Source of the DNA: Polyangiales bacterium
Lineage (GTDB): Bacteria; Myxococcota_A; Polyangia; Polyangiales; Ga0077539
Reading direction: 5' to 3'
NCBI GenBank assembly: GCA_044375895.1
Contig: JBILLV010000200.1
Coordinates: forward strand, 1 to 16,784
Length of the DNA stretch: 16,784 bases
A model generated the notes under the pieces. The model did no database searches and was not told where the DNA came from. It saw only the letters and a program-made list of their open reading frames with translations. Positions 7,035 through 15,667 of the stretch are shown here, in pieces (the stretch's first letter is position 1; every line of letters begins with the position of its first letter). The position numbers were made by a program, and so were the translations under genes.

Positions 7035-8240
7035 TCATGTACGGCGCGCGGTCAGGGAGACACGCACCACCTCGGGCGGCGCCGCGAGGCGCACGGGCGG
7101 CCCGGTGATCCCCACGCCGCGCGAGACGAACAGGCTCGATCCGCCGCGTTGGTAGCGCCCCGCGACGAAGGGCATGAGCCGATCGGCGACGTGGCCGACG
7201 TTCACCTGGCCCCCGTGCGTGTGCCCCGAGAGCTGGAGCGCCACGCGGCCCGCAGCCTTGATGAAATACACAGGATTGTGAGCCAGCAGCACCACCGGCG
7301 CCTCCGGATCGGCCCCCGCGAGGGCGCGCCGCAGGTCGGGACCGGCCCCGCCAAACAGCCGCGGCGCCATCACGTCGTCGACCCCCGCGAGCGTGATCGA
7401 ACCCCGCCGCGGGTCGCCCGTGTGCACCTTCACCGCCGCGTTGACGAGGCACGAGATCCCTGCCGCCGCGAAGCCTCCTCGCACCGCCTCACGCCCGGTG
7501 TAGTGGTCGTGGTTGCCCAGGATCGCGTGAACGCCGAGGCGCCCCCGCAGCCGCGCGAGGGCCCGCACCGCGTCGGGCACGTGCGCCGGGTTGTTGTCGA
7601 GGATGTCGCCCGTGATCACCACGAGGTCGCCGCGCAGCGCGTTGACGCGCTCGATGAGGCGATCGAGCTCGCGGGGACCGGTGAAGATCCCGATGTGCAG
7701 GTCGGTGATCTGGACGATCGTGAGCCCGTCGAGGGAGGGCGGCAGGTCGGTGACGGTGACGCTCGCCTCGGTGAGCTGGAGGTCGTGCCGCTCGCGCAGA
7801 GCCCCGTAGAGCGTGGCCGCGCCCGCCGTGCCTGTGACTGCCAGAGAGAGGCCCTGCGCGATCACCTCGCGCCGCGTGGGAGCGTCTGGCGGCGGCGCCT
7901 CGGGGCGTGGGCGAAGCCGCTCGACGATGCGCCAGGCGTTGGACACGAAGTGGACGCCGAGGATGCCCGCGGCGCTGGCGAACAGGGTGAAGCCCGAGAG
8001 CCGCGAGAGCCACACGAGGGGTCGCCAGATGCCGCCGCCGACGGGCGCGTAGAGCCGCGCGCTGAGCTCGATGATCGTCGAGAGCGCCACGGCCGCGACG
8101 CATGCCACCAGGAGCCAGCGTCGCGTCGTGCGGCCCTCGGTGCGTCGCGGTGCGATCGCTCGCGCGGTGACGTAGAGGCCGAGGCCCACTTGAATCGCCA
8201 GCACCACGGCGAAGAACACGAGGCGCAGGAGGATGGCCAC
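7035..8240 (-). CDS. Membrane-anchored metallophosphoesterase (calcineurin-like, COG1408-type) with N-terminal transmembrane helices
   Basis: Metallophosphoesterase motifs ITDLHIG, ITGDILD, GNHDH and GHTHGGQ follow about four hydrophobic helices (VAILLRLVFFAVVLAIQVGLGLYV, WLLVACVAAVALSTII, FTLFASAAGILGVHFV, LSLAVTGTAGAATLYG). Start placed at the in-frame GTG at 8240, just before the first helix. The first ATG in frame is at 8462, but the 74 residues it adds are Arg/Gly-rich and non-protein-like. The start is therefore uncertain (8240 to 8462). Confidence 0.8.
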   Translation of the reverse strand: MAILLRLVFFAVVLAIQVGLGLYVTARAIAPRRTEGRTTRRWLLVACVAAVALSTIIELSARLYAPVGGGIWRPLVWLSRLSGFTLFASAAGILGVHFVSNAWRIVERLRPRPEAPPPDAPTRREVIAQGLSLAVTGTAGAATLYGALRERHDLQLTEASVTVTDLPPSLDGLTIVQITDLHIGIFTGPRELDRLIERVNALRGDLVVITGDILDNNPAHVPDAVRALARLRGRLGVHAILGNHDHYTGREAVRGGFAAAGISCLVNAAVKVHTGDPRRGSITLAGVDDVMAPRLFGGAGPDLRRALAGADPEAPVVLLAHNPVYFIKAAGRVALQLSGHTHGGQVNVGHVADRLMPFVAGRYQRGGSSLFVSRGVGITGPPVRLAAPPEVVRVSLTARRT

Positions 8241-8476
8241 GACGCGGCGATCATGGGGACAACGGCGCCCGCGCGCAACGACCACCCGCGCGAACGTCCC
8301 TGGCGAGGGGGCGAACGGCGCTGGACAACCCGCGGGCGCGCTCGTACCTTGTCGCCCTCTTTGGGGGCGCCTCAGCCTCCACCACGCCACCCCCAACCCG
8401 CCACACGTCACGCGTCTCGTCGCCGCCGCGCCCCCGCGGCCCCTTCGACGACGGCGCCCCACCCCATGGACACGCC

Positions 8477-11218
8477 ATGAGCATCGAGAACCGCCAGAAG
8501 ATCCCTGTCCCCCGCCGTTCGTTCCTGTGGTCGCTCAACGAGACCTCGGGCGAGATCCTCCTGCACGTCGGTCCGACGGAATTCACCCCGAGCGCCAACG
8601 ACCGCATCGTCCGCGCGAACGAGCGGGGCGGCTTCGAGCAGGCGCCGATGGAGGCGAGGCCCTTCATCGTCGCCCGCGACGGGGAGTACGTCATCCTCAC
8701 CAACCCGATGCGCGGCGACGTGACCGAGGAGTACTCCAACGGGGCGTACATCCCCGGCGGCAACAAGGAGAAGGAGCTCATCCTCGGCACGACGCGCATC
8801 ATCCCGGGGCCCTGCGCCTTTCCGCTCTGGCCGGGCCAGTCGGCGGAGGTGCGGCCCGCGCACAAGCTCGGCGCCAACCACTACCTCCTCGTCGAGGTGG
8901 TGGGCGCCGTCGAGGAGCGCGCGCGGTACTACAAGCTCCTCATCGCGTCGGCGGAGCTGTCGAGCGCCGTCATCGACGCCGGCGGCGACGCCACCGACGC
9001 CCAGGGCGCACCGGAGGCGGGCGCGGCGAAGGTCCCGTCGCAGCTCCGGCTGGGTCAGCGCATCGTGATCCAGGGCCGCCACACGCAGCTCTTCATCCCG
9101 CCGTCGGGCGTCGAGGTGGTGGCGCCCGTCGAGGACGTCGACCCGTCGCAGATGGCGCGCACCGACACGGACGAGGACGGCATCGCGACGCTCCCACCAG
9201 CCACGCAGCAGGAGTGCGCGAAGCTGGTGGCGCAGGTGCGCGAGGGCGTGAGCGCGAAGCAGTTCAGCGTGCTCAAGAACGAGCTGCGCCACCGCAGCGA
9301 CCTCACCACCGGGCAGCGCGCCATCGTGCTCACGGCCCTCGACGCGGCCTTCGAAGAGCGCGGCGCCGCCCTGGCGCCGCGCGCGCGCAAGTCGGGTGTC
9401 ACGGGCGAGCGGCGCGCCCAGGGCCAGCCCATGGACCCCTACGCCCGCCGCGCGGTGGTGCTCGGGCCGAAGGAGTTCTGCATCCTGTTCGACGCCGACG
9501 GCAACCCGCGCATCGTGAAGGGCCCGGCGCGCGTCTTCCCGGGGCCCCACGACACCTTCCTCCAGCGCGGCTCGCGGCGGCGCGTGTACGACGCCTACGA
9601 GCTCGCCGAGCACCAGGCGCTCTGGCTCCGCATCATCGCGCCCATCACGCGGGAGAAGCTCGCCCAGCGCGTGCCGCCGAGCGTCACCCTCGACCGCGAC
9701 GTCTTCCCGCCGGGCCACGAGATGATCGTGCGGGGCCAGCCGACGGTGTTCTTCCCGTTCATCGAGGCGGAGGTGATCCACCCCGAGACGCGCGAGCCCC
9801 ACGTCGGCAACGACCACGACGCCGTCGTGCTCACCGCCCTCGGCGTCGACCAGAAGAGCGGGGTGTACGTCCGCGACCTGCGCACGGGCATGGTGAAGAT
9901 GGTGCGCGGCGAGACCTCGTACCTCGTCGACCCGCGCTACGAGGAGCACGTCCACCGCCGCGTCCCGCGCGAGCAGTGGAACCTCTGGATCGGCCATGCG
10001 GAGCCCCACAAGGTGACCCGCGACGAGGCCGTCGCGACCCCGTGGGCCATCTCGGTGACCGTCCCCAACAACGAGGCCGTGCTCATCACGTCGCGCCACG
10101 GGCGCCGCGTCGAGGTCGGGCCCCGCGTCGCGCTCCTCGACTACGAGGAGAGCCTCACGGCGCTCCAGCTCTCCAAGGGCCCCTCGAAGGACGGCAAGGC
10201 CACGGTGACCACGTGCTTCCTCCGCGTGCGCGGCGGTCGCGTGTCTGACAGCTTCGAGCTCGACTCGGCGGACTTCGTGCGCTTCAAGGTGCGCCTCGGC
10301 TTCGCGGGGCACTTCGAAGGCGAGGGGGAGCGGTGGTTCCAGGTCGAAGACCCGGTGAAGCTCCTGGCCGACACCGTGCGCTCGCGGCTGCGCGAGGTGG
10401 CGCGCGCGACCCCCGCCACGCGGCTCCTCGCCGAGCTCCCGGCGCTCGTCCGCCGCAGCCTCTTCGGCGAGGGCGACGCGCTCCGCTTCGAGGAGAACGG
10501 CATGGTGATCGACCGCGTCGACGTGCTCGCCTCGTCGGTGGCCGACGGCTCCCTCGCCGAGCTCTTCAACACGGTGCAGCGCGAGTCGGTGAAGCTCCAG
10601 CTCCACGACCAGCAGGCCACGCGTCGGCTGGAGAGCGCGCGCCACCAGGACGCCGTCGACGCCGACCAGCAGCTCCTGCAGCGCGGCGCCGCGCAGCGCA
10701 AGGCGGAGACCGACGCCCACGCCGCCGAGGCCGCCCACGCCCTCGCGACGCGCACCGGCGAGCTCGAGGGCGAGCGCCGCGCGACAGACCTCGAGCGCTC
10801 GCAGCGCCACCAGGAGCGCGTCCTGGAGTTCGAGGTGCGCACCGAGCGCGAGATGTCCGAGGCCGCCGCGGCCCGGCGCCTCCGTGAAGCGGAGGCAGCA
10901 GCGCGCGCGTCGGAGCTCGGGCACAAGGTCGCCGAGTCCCACCTCGAGGCCGTCGCCCGCGTCGACACCGAGCGCGCCCGGGCCTTCGCCGAAGCCGACG
11001 CCATCAAGCTCCAGGCCGTCCAGGCCGAGCTCGTCGGCGCCCTCCACGCGGCTGCAGACAGCGAGGTGATGAAGGCCGCGGCCAACAACATGAACCTCGT
11101 CGCCCTCCTCGGCGGCCGCTCGCCCGCGGAGATCTTCCAGCAGCTCCTCGCGGGCACGCCCCTCGCCCGCACCGTCCGCGACATGCGCGAGCGCGCGCCC
11201 GGCGACGACGCCGAGTAG
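8477..11218 (+). CDS. Major vault protein (MVP) homolog, apparently full length: vault repeats, shoulder domain and cap-helix coiled-coil
   Basis: The 913 aa length is close to the roughly 890 aa of human MVP. Block-by-block similarity to human MVP, from memory: [38 protein letters not shown] against [50 protein letters not shown] against [35 protein letters not shown]...[11 protein letters not shown] against EIRLAQDPFPLYPGEVLEK...[50 protein letters not shown] against [45 protein letters not shown] against [41 protein letters not shown] against [33 protein letters not shown]. The C-terminal 250 aa are a long Ala/Glu/Arg-rich helical coiled-coil, like the MVP cap helix. No signal peptide. The opposite-strand ORF 8408..11047 is a low-complexity shadow. 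Confidence 0.85.
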   Translation: [913 protein letters not shown]

Positions 11219-11274
11219 TCCTACACCCCCTCTGGTGCGCCGGGTGCGCGTGGCGTACGCTGCGCTTCGCCTCG

Positions 11275-12357
11275 ATGCGCGCGCTCTCCCTCACCCTCAC
11301 CGCAGTGCTCGCCCTCGGGTGCGGGGCCAAGACGGGCCTGCTCGTCCCCGACGTGCTCACCACGCCCGACACGGCGGACGTGCTCGACGCGCCCGACGTC
11401 GTCGACGGGCCCGACGTCTGCCAGCCGAGCCCGCTGCCCATCGAGCGCTTCGCCGCGGAGGTGATCTTCGTCATCGACCGCTCGGGCAGCATGGGCGAGC
11501 GCACGCGCACCGGCCTCACGCGCTGGCAGGCCGTCACCACCGCCCTGGCGCGCGTGCTGCCCGCCGTCGACCGCGAGCTGCTCGTCGGGCTGACGCAGTT
11601 TCCCGGCGCGACCAACGGCGACAACCAGTGCGGCGACAACAGCCGCATCGAGCTTGCCCCGCGGCTCCTCAACGCGCGCAACGTCCTCGCGGCGCTCGGG
11701 CGCACCACCCCCATGGGCGGGACGCCGACCTTCGAAGCGCTCCGCGCCGCCCAGACCTGGTACCGCACCACGCCCCCGTCGGGCCGCGTCCGCGGGCGCT
11801 ACCTCGTCCTCGCCACCGACGGCGGCCCCAACTGCAACGCCGCGCTCAACGGCGCCACCTGCTCGTGCACCAACTTCCGCACGGGCTGCAACCTCCCGCG
11901 CGGCGGCCTCGCGTGCCTCGACGACAACCGCACCATCGGCCTGCTCGGCGAGCTCGCCAGCACCAACATCGCCACCTTCATCATCGGGACGCCCGGCGAG
12001 GAAGGCGCATCGCTCCCGCAGACGCTCGACCGCATGGCCATCGCGGGCGGGCGGCCGCGGCCCGGCGCCGGCGCGTCGCGCTACTACCGCGCGGAGGACG
12101 TCGATGAGTTCGCGTCGGCCTTCCGCACCATCACGACGGAGCTGGTGCGCTGCCGCTACGTCACCAACCCCGTCGACGACCCCGCGCAGGTGAGCGTGCG
12201 CGTCGGCGGGCGCGAAGTCCCTCGCGACCCGTCGCGCGCCGACGGGTGGGACTGGACCTCGGTGTCGTCTGGGGAGGTGGTGCTCTTCGGCGCGGCCTGC
12301 GAGGCGTCGCAGCGGGTGGGCGGTGAAGTATCGATCCGTTACGGGTGCCAGCCGTAG
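11275..12357 (+). CDS. Lipoprotein with a von Willebrand factor type A (VWA) domain, a Cys-rich insert and a C-terminal Cys-containing domain
   Basis: Signal peptide plus lipobox: MRALSLTLTAVLALG|C. VWA MIDAS motif VIFVIDRSGSMGE (DxSxS), with conserved Thr and Asp positions in GGTPTFEAL and LVLATDGGPN. Seven-cysteine insert CNAALNGATCSCTNFRTGCNLPRGGLAC, consistent with an oxidising (periplasmic or surface) location. Acidic PDV(L/V)D peptide repeats in the linker after the lipobox. It lies 56 nt downstream of the MVP homolog on the same strand. The alternative-frame ORF 11235..12107 is Arg/Pro-rich and rejected. Confidence 0.8.
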   Translation: MRALSLTLTAVLALGCGAKTGLLVPDVLTTPDTADVLDAPDVVDGPDVCQPSPLPIERFAAEVIFVIDRSGSMGERTRTGLTRWQAVTTALARVLPAVDRELLVGLTQFPGATNGDNQCGDNSRIELAPRLLNARNVLAALGRTTPMGGTPTFEALRAAQTWYRTTPPSGRVRGRYLVLATDGGPNCNAALNGATCSCTNFRTGCNLPRGGLACLDDNRTIGLLGELASTNIATFIIGTPGEEGASLPQTLDRMAIAGGRPRPGAGASRYYRAEDVDEFASAFRTITTELVRCRYVTNPVDDPAQVSVRVGGREVPRDPSRADGWDWTSVSSGEVVLFGAACEASQRVGGEVSIRYGCQP

Positions 12358-12360
12358 CGA

Positions 12361-13323
12361 TCAGCCCGCGAGGGCCGCGTCGATGGCGCGCATCACGTCG
12401 TCGGTGAGCTTCGGGACGACCGCGAGGGCGCCGAGGTTCTCCTGGAGCTGCGACGTGCGGCTGGCGCCGAGGATCACGGTGCTGACGCGGGGGTTCTTGA
12501 GGCACCACGCGATGGCGAGCTGCGACAGCGGGACGCCGAGGTCGCTCGCCACCTTGCCGAGGCGCTTGACCACCACGAGGCGCGACGGGTCGGTGAGCAT
12601 CGGGCGGAGCCACTCCATGCCCGGCAGCGTCGCGCGCGCGCCCTCGGGAACGCCGTCGTTGTACTTGCCCGTGAGCAGGCCCGACGCGAGGGGGCTCCAC
12701 GTGGTGGTGCCGAGGCCGATGCGCTCGTAGAGGGCGGCGTACTCCGTCTCCACGCGGTCGCGGTGCAGGAGGTGGTACTGCGGCTGCTCCATCACGGGCT
12801 TGTGGAGGTGGTGGCGCTCGGCGATGTCCCAGGCCTCCTGGATCTGCGCCGCGCCCCACTCGGACGTCCCCCAGTAGAGCGCCCGACCCGTGCGGACGAT
12901 GTCGTGCATCGCCCAGACCGTCTCCTCCACGGGCGTGTCGGGGTCGGGGCGGTGGCAGAACACCAGGTCGACGTGGTCGAGCTGGAGGCGCTTCAGCGAG
13001 CCGTCGATCGACTCCAGCAGGTACTTGCGGTTGAGCGTGTTGCGCTCGTTGGGGCCGTCGTTGAGCCCCCAGTAGAACTTCGTCGACACCGCGTAGCTCG
13101 CGCGGCGCCACCCGGCCCGCTTGAGCACCCGGCCCATGATCGTCTCCGACTCGCCCTTCGCGTACACCTCCGCGTTGTCGAAGAAGTTCACCCCGGCGTC
13201 GTAGGCGGCGGCCATGCACTCGTGCGCGAGGTCGTCGTTCATCTGCTTGCCGTAGGTGACCCAGGAGCCGAAGGAGAGCTCGCTCACCTTCAGCCCCGCC
13301 CTGCCCAGTCGTCGGTACTGCAT
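12361..13323 (-). CDS. Aldo-keto reductase of the K+-channel beta-subunit-like (AKR6/Kv-beta) type; NADPH-dependent oxidoreductase
   Basis: Colinear similarity to Kv-beta2 throughout: [15 protein letters not shown] against LRVSCLGLGTWVTFG; [15 protein letters not shown] against YESGVNLFDTAEVYA; [19 protein letters not shown] against KKKGWRRSSLVITTKLYWG; [15 protein letters not shown] against YVDVVFANRPDSNTP; ALYWGTSEW against AMYWGTSRW; [15 protein letters not shown] against MTWSPLACGIISGKY; [12 protein letters not shown] against LPQLAVAWCLRN; [16 protein letters not shown] against LLGSSTPEQLIENLGA. Confidence 0.9.
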
Positions 13324-13349
13324 CGTCTCGTCGCTCCTGTCGTGTGCGC

Positions 13350-14546
13350 TCAGAACCCCGCCACCATGCCCAGCGTGAGCGTGTCCTGGCTCGCCGCCGA
13401 CGGGTCCGTCGCGCTCCCCTGATAGAACACCGGCGCCTCGGCGTGGTCGTGGCGGTACTCCAGCCGCGCGCTGAGGTGCTCGAAGGGAGCGTACTCCAGC
13501 GTCGCGGTCTGCGAGGTCATCCAGTCAGCCGCCCAGAAGATCCGTGTTCCCATGGCCGGCGCGCGGTCGAAGAAGAAGTCCGCACGCAGCGCGAGGCGGA
13601 GCGTGTCGGTGAGTTCGAAGCGCGCGTAGGCGGCCGCGGCGCTCCAGTAGTTGACGCCGAAGTTGTTGGGTTCGAAGCCGGCGTTGAGGTGGCCCATCAC
13701 CGTGACGCGTCGCCCGACCCGAACGCGCAGGTACACGTCGAAGAGGCTGCGCCACGCGACCCCCGCCGCGTCGGCCCGGTCGCGCTCGATGCCGCCGAAG
13801 TAGAGGGCGTTGAAGGTGACGTCCGCCGACGGCGCGTACGTGTATTGGAGCAGCACCGACTTGGCGACGTTGTTGTCGACGACGCTGTTCCACCCGTTGA
13901 AGACGCCGAAGGCGACGCTGTGACGCGCGTTGACGGTGTGGGTGACGCGCAGGCCCGTGTGGTAGAAGGGCAGGCCGTAGAAGAGGTTGGAGCGCGACCA
14001 GTTCCAGTTGTCGCGCACGGGCATGGCCTCGGGGCCGATGGGGGAGAGGAAGATGCCCGCCTCCACCAGCCACGCGCCCGCGCGCGCCCCGACGGTCGCC
14101 TGCTGGAGGTACTTCCACACCTCGGATCCAGTGGCCCCGACGCCCGCGAGGGCCCGCCGCGCGGGCTCGGCGCTGTAGTAGCTCTCGGGCGTGTGACCCA
14201 CCTGGAGCGCGAGCCGGCCCACCATCGCGCGGTACTGCCACGACGCGTCGAGCACGACGTTGGAGAGCGTGATGGTGTTGTGCCGGTTGTCGAAGCCGCG
14301 CCAGGCCGTCACCCCGTTCTCGGGGTTGTTGAAGTTCCACTGGTAGAGGGCTTCGACGTAGCCCGCGAGGGTGAGCGTCGCGCGCCCGGAAGAGAGCACG
14401 AACGGAGAGGCCGGCGCCTCTGGCGACGAGGGCTGTGCGGCGGTGAGCTCCAGCGGTCGCGTCGCCTCCGTCGCAGGGACCTCCTGCGCGCTGGCGCCCC
14501 CGGCGAAGAGGAGCGCGGCGATGCCCACGAAGCGATGCCCTCTCAT
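13350..14546 (-). CDS. Outer-membrane beta-barrel protein (porin-like; possibly the BBP2 family)
   Basis: Signal peptide [20 protein letters not shown]|QE, with GGAG 7 nt upstream of ATG 14546. A long body of alternating amphipathic strands rich in Y, W, F, G and N ([59 protein letters not shown]). The C-terminal residue is Phe (...LGMVAGF), typical of BAM-dependent outer-membrane proteins. Its start ATG overlaps the stop of the upstream gene (ATGA). The longer ORF extending to 14684 has an Arg/Gly-rich N-terminal extension and is rejected. Confidence 0.75.
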
Positions 14547-15667
14547 AGAATCTCCACGATGCGCACGCCGACGTCGCCCTCGATGTCCACGAGCTCGCCG
14601 CGCGCGATGGCCCGCCCGCTCGCCCGCACGGTCACCACGTCTCCCACCCGCGCGCGAAACGGCACCACCTCGCCCGCGCGCCACGCGGCCACCTCGGCGA
14701 AGGAGAAGGACTCCCGCGCGATCTCGACCGCGACCTCCACCGGGAGCGTCGCCAGCTGCGCCTCGTCGTCGTGATCTTCCATGAAGGGCACCAGTGCGCC
14801 GCAGAGCACCACCGCGCCGTCGTCGCGGAGCCGCGCCGCGCGCGCGAGCCCGGGAGGATGCCCCATGGCGACGGAGACGTCACCCCTCAGCGTGCCCTCG
14901 CAGAGAGAGAGCCCGTCGAGCGCGATCACCTCCCCCCGCGCGAGCGAGGCCAGCGCCGAGAGCGTCCAACGCGCTCGACCCGCCACCGCCGATGCGACGA
15001 CCGGGAGATCGTCGAGGCGTCGCCAGGAGGGTGAGTCGAAGGCCGGGCGCGCGTCGCGCTCCAACACCACCGTGACCCGCGCGGAGCGCTCGCCGAGCGC
15101 GAGCGTCCAGGGCCACGCGAGGAGGGGATCGCCGTGGAGCGCCGCGATCGCGTCGGGGAGGTCGTCGGTGATGGCGCGGACCACGGGCGGTGGCGCCGGA
15201 TCGAAGGCGCGCGCGAGCAGTCGGGCGGTGAGCGCGGTGAGGGCACCTTCCCAGCGCGGCGCGAGGGGGCCGTGCGGCGCGTAAGTGACCTCGGGCGCGT
15301 CCGGGCCGCCGAGGCAGCGCTGCGCGAGGGAGAGCGCGAAGGGGCGGTCGCACGCCACCACGGCGCACCCGTGGCGCAGCGAGAGCACGGCGGCGAGCGT
15401 CGCGCGGTCGAGGGAGCGAAGGAGCGTCCCGCGATCGGTCAGGGCGGGCGCGTGCGGCTGCGCGACCAGCGGAGCGCCCAGGAGCGCGCGGAGGCCGCCG
15501 TCGCGCTGCGGCCGCGGCTGCGAGGGCGCGCCGAGGCCACGAACGAGTGCGCGGACGAGGGCCACGTCGCGCCGTCGCCAGCGCGGCAATGAAGCGTAGG
15601 GGAAGGGCAGCGCGAGGTCGCTCACCGCGTGTGGCACACGAGAGCGCGCCGCCCGAGACGACGTCAA
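14543..15667 (-). CDS. SpoA (FliN/SctQ-family) domain protein; cytoplasmic C-ring-type component of type III secretion or flagellar systems
   Basis: The C-terminal 70 aa, [70 protein letters not shown], match the SpoA/FliN consensus (...vpvevsvelG.t.ltl.ell.L.vGdvi.L......pv.l.vng..ia.GElv.vdg..gvri.ei) almost position by position. The 300-aa N-terminal region is not recognised. Stop overlaps the start of the downstream beta-barrel gene. The start could be the ATG at 15667 or an internal site. Confidence 0.7.
   Translation of the reverse strand: MTSSRAARSRVPHAVSDLALPFPYASLPRWRRRDVALVRALVRGLGAPSQPRPQRDGGLRALLGAPLVAQPHAPALTDRGTLLRSLDRATLAAVLSLRHGCAVVACDRPFALSLAQRCLGGPDAPEVTYAPHGPLAPRWEGALTALTARLLARAFDPAPPPVVRAITDDLPDAIAALHGDPLLAWPWTLALGERSARVTVVLERDARPAFDSPSWRRLDDLPVVASAVAGRARWTLSALASLARGEVIALDGLSLCEGTLRGDVSVAMGHPPGLARAARLRDDGAVVLCGALVPFMEDHDDEAQLATLPVEVAVEIARESFSFAEVAAWRAGEVVPFRARVGDVVTVRASGRAIARGELVDIEGDVGVRIVEIL

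Follow-up and report, generated by a model that had tools for sequence, protein, structure and literature searches.

The 16,784-nucleotide stretch of Polyangiales DNA analysed here (the window) carries, on the same strand and close together, a gene for a bacterial MVP homolog and a gene for a VWA-domain lipoprotein, and this arrangement raises the question of whether the second protein is a partner of the first. We know of no function for any bacterial MVP homolog; a conserved partner gene would therefore have been a valuable lead. Such homologs have been listed by Daly et al. 2013, without partners. The sequence-only reading of the locus pointed to the VWA domain of VPARP/PARP4, and it weighed a physical complex of the two proteins against a link by co-regulation.

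The MVP homolog (913 aa; 8477..11218, + strand), the upstream neighbour, is considered here as context only and lies outside the VWA unit. It exhibits the Pfam domains MVP_shoulder (2e-11) and Vault_3 (1.3e-6), and phmmer aligns it to rat/human MVP with an E-value of 4e-16 over residues 328-840. No N-terminal hydrophobic segment was found, in keeping with the earlier observation that it possesses no signal peptide. Its ORF ends at 11218 and is followed by a 56-nt spacer (11219..11274, +) and by the VWA gene (11275..12357 including the stop codon, +), and thus the spacing and common strand noticed from the sequence are correct. To note, the start coordinate of 11219 given previously is the first base of the spacer, the ATG itself being at 11275. 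The ORF at 11275-12357 displays a GC3 of 0.96, a strong coding signature, and encodes a protein of 360 aa. The AlphaFold2 (AF2) model of this protein has a pLDDT of 90.9 overall and of 59-76 across residues 1-50.

The conservation of the gene pair was surveyed in 44 species-representative MVP loci with usable downstream sequence. The VWA gene is located downstream of MVP in four of them (L001-L004), all closest relatives of the window with an MVP at least 80% identical, and is absent from the other 40; next to P0126, an MVP of 76% identity, there is no VWA gene. As the VWA-family HMM does not recognise generic VWA domains (a second VWA gene in locus L059 escaped it), 30 immediate downstream ORFs from 29 other MVP loci were also scanned with Pfam; none of them contains a VWA domain of any type. 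All-against-all clustering of the MVP neighbours did not reveal any conserved neighbour beyond genus-level synteny and ubiquitous Ser/Thr kinases. The pair is therefore not conserved across the MVP-bearing bacteria surveyed, contrary to what a partnership would have led one to expect. PADLOC matched neither the VWA protein nor MVP nor the phosphoesterase to a defence system, and the PD-T4-6 matches of the kinase reflect generic kinase similarity.

The distribution of the VWA orthologues leads to the same picture. Loci L057, L059, L061, L062, L064, L066, L067 and L073 harbor the VWA gene without MVP; they are metagenome contigs, and the absence of MVP applies to the locus and not to the whole genome. 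Within the orthologue group, the pairing is confined to a single shallow subclade of Polyangiales, in which at least three losses have occurred, the MVP-less loci being nested inside the MVP-bearing subclade in the NJ tree. A striking example is the close relative L066, which retains the flanks of the window (STK, 88%; AKR, 87%; BBP2; SctQ-like) while MVP is missing. No MVP remnants were detected in its spacer by blastn (word size 7) or tblastn, only the STK-proximal and VWA-proximal ends being alignable; the homology of the window spacer to that of L066 begins at 11228, 9 nt past the MVP stop. Similarly, L057 retains the downstream flank of L068 without MVP. The order MVP then VWA, with a short spacer of 44-204 nt, is observed in seven sampled lineages (the window, L001, L069, L002, L003, L004 and L070) and in two flanking contexts, STK-MVP-VWA-AKR and ClpB-MVP-VWA-OmpA, and the pair has therefore come through some rearrangements together. 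Taken as a whole, the adjacency looks like a lineage-specific juxtaposition, an accident of gene order that arose once and was broken several times, and functional coupling of the two genes seems to be absent.

The spacer contains a promoter-like element belonging to the VWA gene. Its -35-like hexamer, CTGGTG (11232..11237, +), corresponds to TTGGTG or TTGnnn in the majority of the orthologue loci, with TGG invariant in a 10-locus alignment. The -10-like hexamer, TACGCT (TAnnCT; 11256..11261, +), is located 18 nt further downstream and 13 nt before the ATG, and its TA..CT is invariant in the same alignment, including the MVP-less L066, L062 and L057. In 13 of 14 orthologue loci, again with MVP-less ones among them, the arrangement TTGnnn-N17/18-TAnnCT is situated 8-20 nt upstream of the ATG; by chance it would arise in 0.2-0.3% of cases. 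The distance of 13 nt to the ATG implies a very short leader devoid of a Shine-Dalgarno sequence. Scanning positions 10700-12700 with standard consensus patterns for sigma-70 promoters and terminators returned nothing; since the element lies under the threshold of that scan, it is comparative conservation that singles it out, and an independent VWA promoter in the spacer is predicted on this basis. The stretch TGGTGC-N5-GTGC, found in the window, L001 and L069, was considered as a sigma-54 site and rejected, since it is TTGnnn-N17/18-TAnnCT, and not a GG-N10-GC spacing, that the remaining orthologue loci preserve. The initial remark that no intrinsic terminator separates the two genes holds: there is no terminator-like site or hairpin in the spacer, and the folding of its RNA is no better than that of shuffled sequences (z = 0.56). 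Read-through is thus plausible and MVP-VWA co-transcription possible in the lineage of the window. A conserved co-regulation of MVP and VWA is, conversely, argued against by the 40 loci out of 44 without the pair and by the predicted promoter motif being kept in orthologue loci without MVP.

The features of the VWA protein itself are those of an exported protein. It begins with a lipoprotein signal peptide, MRALSLTLTAVLALG followed by the lipobox cysteine C16 (lipobox LALGC; 11275..11322, +), which possesses a positive n-region and a hydrophobic h-region and matches a PROSITE PS51257-type pattern within the first 35 residues (KD13 = 2.05). Of 116 homologs, at least 90% retain residues C16, G17, A18, T20, G21, L22 and P25, and the N-terminus is the same in 14 of 14 orthologue loci; the lipobox noticed at the outset is therefore genuine as a conserved pattern. 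It is followed by the conserved motif GAKTGLLVPD, restricted to this family within 1.09 Mb of fetched DNA, and by an acidic tether predicted to be flexible from its composition and pLDDT (residues 17-48; 11323..11418, +). The tether comprises 7 Asp, 4 Pro and 6 Val arranged as PDV, PDT and ADV units, which agrees with the acidic repeats described earlier. Besides that of the lipobox, the protein harbors ten of its 11 cysteines, nine of them invariant and C205 nearly so (at least 90%) among the 116 homologs; this even number is compatible with five disulfides. The VWA domain contains a Cys-rich insertion (residues 185-216; 11827..11922, +), which had been credited with seven cysteines but holds five, C187, C196, C198, C205 and C214, all invariant or nearly so. 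The lipoprotein signal and the ten conserved cysteines predict export to an oxidising compartment, as had been proposed, and set the protein apart from the signal-less MVP. The protein is probably lipidated, and it may reside in the outer membrane or at the cell surface.

The tether leads to an integrin alpha-I-like VWA domain (~residues 50-291; 11422..12147, +) with the Rossmann-like alpha/beta fold of this family, recognised by Pfam as VWA_2 (PF13519, 37.6 bits for a cut-off of 27) and VWA (PF00092, 25.5 bits for a cut-off of 23.8). Its MIDAS is formed by D68-R-S70-G-S72 (nt 11476-11490), T150 and D182; D68, S70, S72, T150 (as well as T152) and D182 are invariant in the 116-sequence family alignment, and the MIDAS is therefore complete, as stated in the sequence-only reading. 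A small C-terminal domain follows (residues 292-360; 12148..12354, +). It is rich in beta structure, with strands assigned by DSSP at 294-356 of the AF2 model, and harbors the conserved C293, C342 and C358 and a GWDW motif in invariant alignment columns. The closest structural matches of the model are extracellular adhesins.

By sequence comparison, the closest characterised relative of the VWA protein is CglB. The NCBIfam profile NF033757 (CglB) aligns with residues 78-344 over profile positions 79-382 of 402 (E 7e-27), with a score of 94.5 bits for an equivalog cut-off of 200 bits: the protein is a homolog and not an equivalog. CglB, the adventurous-gliding adhesin of Myxococcus xanthus, is a surface-exposed outer-membrane lipoprotein with a VWA domain, a MIDAS, a beta-jellyroll domain and 16 disulfide cysteines (Islam et al. 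2023, PMC9946355). The two proteins come from the same phylum, and the architecture described for CglB is found here too: a lipobox cysteine, a complete MIDAS within the VWA domain, numerous conserved cysteines for disulfides and, at the C-terminus, a small beta domain. They differ in length (360 aa as compared to a profile of 402 positions), in the number of non-lipobox cysteines (10 instead of 16), and in the CGAKTGLLVPD motif and acidic PDV tether, which are proper to the family of the VWA protein. Their genomic surroundings differ as well, the VWA locus having no nearby Glt genes and, ancestrally, OmpA/TSP3 and DsbA neighbours. The VWA protein is not CglB itself, but a member of a large Polyangiales/Myxococcota family of paralogs of this Myxococcus gliding adhesin.

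The MIDAS-bearing VWA domains of other extracellular adhesins, namely SpaC, Mfa5, the minor pilin PilB, Plasmodium TRAP, integrin alpha-I and CMG2/TEM8, display only 13-22% identity with the VWA protein. They are carried by pili, transmembrane helices or integrins, whereas the predicted anchor here is an N-terminal lipid followed by a tether, and the Cys-rich insertion 185-216 is an addition relative to all of them. BatB is a VWA protein anchored by transmembrane helices and encoded in the batA-E operon (Bacteroides aerotolerance, Bat) with MoxR-type partners. The VWA protein differs from it by its lipobox and its richness in cysteines, and no bat or MoxR-type genes are present at this locus.

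The older and more widely conserved neighbours of the VWA gene are a downstream gene for an OmpA/TSP3 outer-membrane protein and a divergent gene for DsbA. The VWA-OmpA/TSP3 pair is found in nine lineages, spanning the deepest divergences among the orthologues, and the divergent DsbA neighbour in three. The OmpA gene is missing from the window, L001, L066 and L069.

Several explanations of the MVP-VWA neighbourhood can be confronted with these data. That the VWA protein is a VPARP-like minor vault component, bound in or on a bacterial vault-like MVP shell, is suggested by the adjacency and by the VWA domain of PARP4, and by nothing else. Both proteins possess this domain and both are associated with the MVP family, but the association is physical for PARP4 and only genomic here. 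For docking to MVP, PARP4 uses the helical MINT domain and not the VWA domain (PMC12280208). In the VWA protein, Pfam finds VWA only, among the BRCT, PARP catalytic, VIT, VWA and MINT domains of PARP4, and its 69-residue C-terminal region is beta-rich, with no MINT-like helical region evident in the AF2 model. PARP4 is cytoplasmic, whereas the conserved export signal and ten disulfide cysteines predict that the VWA protein does not share the compartment of the signal-less MVP. Together with the unconserved pairing, this makes a VPARP-like partnership so improbable that the analogy is best abandoned. A lineage-specific operon is a better founded proposal, in which MVP and the lipoprotein would be co-transcribed and serve one process despite their separate compartments; a cytoplasmic assembly of MVP could, for instance, be regulated jointly with an adhesin of the envelope. 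The common strand, the spacing of 44-204 nt without a terminator, and the order kept in seven lineages over two flanking contexts are consistent with it. However, descent alone predicts a shared gene order among relatives whose MVPs are at least 80% identical, the pairing is missing from the 40 other MVP loci (with no VWA in the downstream ORFs scanned) and was lost at least three times in the subclade, including from L066 with its identical flanks, the same promoter-like element precedes the VWA gene with or without MVP, and the two proteins are predicted in different compartments; we thus regard such an operon as unlikely. A more specific version, in which MVP captured a site upstream of a CglB-like adhesin gene and one transcript couples a cytoplasmic vault-like assembly to adhesin display at the outer membrane, appears very unlikely. 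Were it true, this coupling would constitute a lineage-specific functional module and the first handle on the role of a bacterial MVP homolog.

The function and orientation of the VWA protein allow for two further readings. It might be a genuine orthologue of CglB and serve an Agl-Glt gliding machine of its host as adhesin, in view of the full-length profile similarity and of the lipobox, MIDAS-bearing VWA domain, many cysteines and small beta domain that they have in common. This seems highly improbable: the score is so far under the equivalog cut-off that the function of CglB is not transferable with confidence, the ten non-lipobox cysteines are not the 16 of CglB, the family contains many paralogs at 35-42% identity, and no glt or agl genes are present in the 16.8-kb window. 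The second reading is more probable, but remains the less likely orientation. The protein could be located in the outer membrane's inner leaflet and face the periplasm, its MIDAS binding an envelope partner, ancestrally the OmpA/TSP3 neighbour, since lost from the locus in the lineage of the window. Most outer-membrane lipoproteins face the periplasm, which counts for this orientation, as does the VWA-OmpA/TSP3 adjacency kept in nine lineages across the deepest splits, and the acidic calcium-binding TSP3 repeats could supply the ligands of the MIDAS. Against it stand the structural matches to extracellular adhesins, the surface exposure of CglB (PMC9946355), and the lack of an OmpA gene in the window, L001, L066 and L069.

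We consider it probable that the product of the ORF at 11275-12357 is an exported, lipid-anchored and disulfide-stabilised CglB-like VWA protein expressed from its own promoter, and that its adjacency to MVP does not indicate a physical or obligatory functional link. The gene would be transcribed from a sigma-70-type promoter, CTGGTG-N18-TACGCT, with a very short leader. The Sec/Lgt/LspA-type signal would take the protein through the inner membrane into the periplasm, where oxidation of its ten conserved cysteines would occur, and, the residue at position +2 being a Gly, the lipoprotein would probably be sorted to the outer membrane, where it may hang on its flexible acidic PDV-repeat tether. 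There, the MIDAS (D68, S70, S72, T150, D182) may bind a ligand's acidic side chain via a divalent cation, as in integrin alpha-I domains, pilus-tip adhesins and CglB. The ancestral genomic partners of the VWA gene would encode envelope proteins, namely the downstream OmpA-family protein with its TSP3 calcium-binding repeats and the divergent DsbA-like oxidoreductase. From the features discussed above, ligand binding by the MIDAS and activity of the promoter are both presumed.

The VWA gene is thus removed as a lead to the function of bacterial MVP homologs, and across Myxococcota no conserved MVP neighbour emerges. The positive outcome is modest: a coherent Polyangiales family of CglB-like, MIDAS-bearing, disulfide-rich lipoproteins is defined, the hallmarks of which are the post-lipobox motif CGAKTGLLVPD and a conserved, near-leaderless predicted promoter. 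This family may be of interest to those working on myxobacterial surface adhesins and on lipoprotein sorting.

The MVP homolog (8477-11218, forward strand, 913 aa) is recognised by the Pfam families MVP_shoulder (2e-11) and Vault_3 (1.3e-6), and rat MVP aligns with it in phmmer (E 4e-16, residues 328-840). Its N-terminus is not hydrophobic, and the absence of a signal peptide is borne out. The surrounding DNA has a G+C content of about 72%, and its relatives are found in Polyangiales and other Myxococcota. The next same-strand ORF is the VWA gene (11275-12357, forward strand), which starts with ATG, encodes 360 residues and has a GC3 of 0.96. As no in-frame start precedes the ATG at 11275, the spacer that follows the end of the MVP homolog at 11218 is exactly 56 nt long. 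It contains no terminator-like site, and its RNA fold is not more stable than those of shuffled sequences (z = 0.56). The gene pair described in the sequence-only reading is real, and only a minor correction is needed.

The earlier interpretation of the VWA protein itself is correct. Both VWA_2 (37.6 bits) and VWA (25.5 bits) exceed their Pfam thresholds, and the complete MIDAS (D68-R-S70-G-S72, T150 and D182) is present and invariant across a 116-sequence alignment. The N-terminus, MRALSLTLTAVLALG followed by C16, conforms to the lipoprotein pattern, and behind it an acidic tether containing PDV/PDT/ADV units spans residues 17-48, with low pLDDT in the structure model. The Cys-rich insert also exists (residues 185-216), but holds five cysteines and not the seven first counted. 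The protein has 11 cysteines, C16 and ten others, nine of which are invariant in the alignment, while C205 is nearly so. The same N-terminus and an invariant CGAKTGL(L)VPD were seen in all 14 orthologue loci examined. In the window, CGAKTGLLVPD (11320-11352, residues 16-26) directly follows the lipobox Cys; it varies little or not at all among 116 family members, is confined to this lipoprotein family within 1.09 Mb of fetched Myxococcota DNA, and may be a family-specific signal for sorting or surface export.

The closest described relative is CglB, the gliding-machinery adhesin of Myxococcus xanthus, an outer-membrane lipoprotein whose MIDAS-bearing VWA domain is accompanied by a small beta-jellyroll domain and whose disulfide cysteines number 16 (PMC9946355). 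The NCBIfam CglB profile NF033757 matches residues 78-344 over nearly its full length (positions 79-382 of 402, E 7e-27), with a score of 94.5 bits, far under the 200-bit equivalog cut-off. The homolog search delineates an orthologue-like group (P0001-P0036, identity of at least 48%), separated by a clear gap from many paralogs that share 35-42% identity and come almost exclusively from Polyangiales/Myxococcota. Profile score and homolog search place the VWA gene in a large CglB-like lipoprotein family and set it apart from CglB itself; its product is a previously undescribed member of a kind of protein already known.

Likening the pair to MVP and VPARP/PARP4 does not hold. PARP4 docks on MVP repeats 3-5 via a helical domain, MINT, and not through VWA (PMC12280208), and Pfam finds neither MINT nor BRCT, PARP catalytic or VIT domains in the VWA protein. 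The latter is also predicted to be exported, in contrast to the presumably cytoplasmic MVP homolog, and the likeness goes no further than possession of a VWA domain, which is very common. MVP homologs of bacteria, myxobacteria among them, were noted in earlier work, which gives no partners for them (PMC3762200).

Nor is the pairing conserved across MVP-bearing bacteria. With each GTDB species represented by one genome, a profile-guided scan yielded 56 MVP loci, 44 of them usable, with at least 1.5 kb beyond the MVP 3' end. By family HMM and tblastn, a same-strand VWA gene lies directly 3' of MVP in only four of the 44 (L001-L004), the closest relatives, with 80-91% MVP identity. The next gene after an MVP 76% identical to that of the window (P0126) is unrelated and convergent. 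Because the family HMM is blind to generic VWA domains, 30 immediate downstream ORFs at other MVP loci were scanned with Pfam, and none has a VWA domain; their products include histidine kinases, a chaperonin, PhoH, DHQ synthase, RimK, a BamB-like protein, an M23 peptidase, FHA, ArsB and NuoF. Clustering of all neighbours revealed no conserved MVP neighbour past genus-level synteny.

Contigs encoding VWA orthologues were examined as well. MVP lies upstream in L069, L068 (= L004) and L070 (83, 68 and 66% VWA identity), and is missing from L066 (78%), L062 (68%), L057 (65%), L061 and L064 (both 61%), L067 (56%), L059 (54%) and L073 (50%). L066 shares the window's flanks (TetR, an STK gene at 88%, VWA, an aldo-keto reductase at 87%) and keeps the BBP2 barrel, the SctQ-like gene and a second STK gene, yet MVP and the phosphoesterase are both missing from its STK-VWA interval, a 371-nt gap in which no remnant of MVP was found. 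Likewise, L057 retains the downstream block of L068 (OmpA, a 470-aa ORF, Amidase_3, HSP20, DUF4132), with Lon upstream in place of ClpB-MVP. In a neighbor-joining tree of VWA proteins, every locus with MVP falls within one subclade, inside which the MVP-less L066, L062 and L057 are nested, and all loci with MVP share one junction of the MVP 3' end with the putative promoter region. The simplest history is therefore that the two genes became neighbours once and that the pairing was later lost at least three times.

The sequence-only reading had also considered co-transcription plausible. Across ten aligned loci (about 100 nt 5' of the ATG), conservation is limited to a TTGGTG/CTGGTG hexamer, TAnnCT 17-18 nt on and the ATG 8-20 nt further; the hexamer pair also occurs in the MVP-less L066, L062 and L057. 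Of the 14 orthologue loci, 13 (the deep L059, L064 and L067 among them) carry a looser form, T[TG]Gnnn-N17/18-TAnnnT, whose end lies 8-20 nt upstream of the start codon; by chance it turns up in 0.28% of shuffled upstream regions and at 0.17% of random positions. In the window, CTGGTG lies at 11232-11237 and the -10-like TACGCT at 11256-11261, and homology with L066 restarts at 11228, just 9 nt past the MVP stop. Motif and homology restart thus suggest that the VWA gene carries its own conserved control region, a predicted promoter that would imply a very short leader and no Shine-Dalgarno sequence. Such a promoter between the genes, as far as a prediction goes, speaks against the link to MVP proposed in the sequence-only reading. 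Read-through from MVP is possible; a lineage-specific MVP-adhesin transcription unit with genuine functional coupling appears very improbable. A link to MVP is not supported, and the position of the VWA gene beside it is best read as a lineage-specific accident. The -10-like hexamer lies inside an 8-bp palindrome, GCGTACGC (11254-11261), probably incidental since L001 and L069 have GCGTAGGC and do not keep it.

Several other features of these loci were recorded. In L015 (Nannocystis radixulma), a distant VWA-family paralog (12991-14901, reverse strand; 25% identity, family HMM E 2e-42) lies just 3' of MVP in convergent orientation, probably by coincidence, as congeneric Nannocystis lack it there. 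In L071 (2142-8763), AAA_22 and NACHT-like NTPase genes precede MVP P0126 on the same strand with a 127-nt gap, in one lineage only. Ser/Thr kinase genes lie a few kb from MVP in 13 loci (including L001, L010-L012, L015, L028, L030, L031, L034, L038, L043 and L044), mostly upstream on the opposite strand; such genes are abundant in myxobacterial genomes, so this proximity may be due to chance. Between kinase and MVP, the window has a YaeI/LpxG-like metallophosphoesterase gene (7035-8462, reverse strand) that is missing from L001, where STK and MVP are just 376 nt apart; the indel spans about 7050-8375. Since 8376-8476 aligns with the MVP-upstream spacer of L001, the phosphoesterase ORF as listed, which begins at 8462 and so only 14 nt from the MVP ATG, probably extends too far; GTG 8285 or 8240, ahead of the TM helices, is a likelier start. 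Three forms of the STK-VWA interval are thus seen: empty in L066, with MVP alone in L001, and with phosphoesterase and MVP in the window. Downstream, a BBP2-type beta-barrel porin gene (13350-14684, reverse strand) and a SctQ/FliN-like gene (14543-15667, reverse strand) form a pair conserved in L066 (4-nt overlap), L001 and L069, and further genes for type III secretion or flagella are not in view; as the listed window ORFs overlap by 142 nt, the porin probably starts further in.

The VWA protein would be exported by Sec, lipidated at C16 and oxidised to five disulfides, the oxidation being supported by the DsbA gene adjoining deep orthologues. Its residue +2 is Gly, in place of the Lys reported as a retention signal for M. 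xanthus, which suggests sorting to the outer membrane. On a presumably flexible, acidic tether, the MIDAS may bind an acidic ligand residue in a cation-dependent manner, the protein facing either outward, as CglB, or inward to an OmpA/TSP3-type partner. An OmpA-family gene with TSP3 repeats lies 3' of the VWA gene in nine lineages, across the deepest splits of the orthologue group, and a divergent double-DsbA gene lies beside it in three. The long-term neighbours of the VWA gene are these envelope genes, not MVP. In deep orthologues (L059 4570-9011, L067 4489-8913, L073 4614-8939), the VWA lipoprotein gene belongs to a conserved triad, preceded by a divergent double-DsbA/thioredoxin gene and followed by one for a TSP3-repeat protein of the OmpA family (about 500-550 aa); this triad may be an envelope module deserving its own definition.
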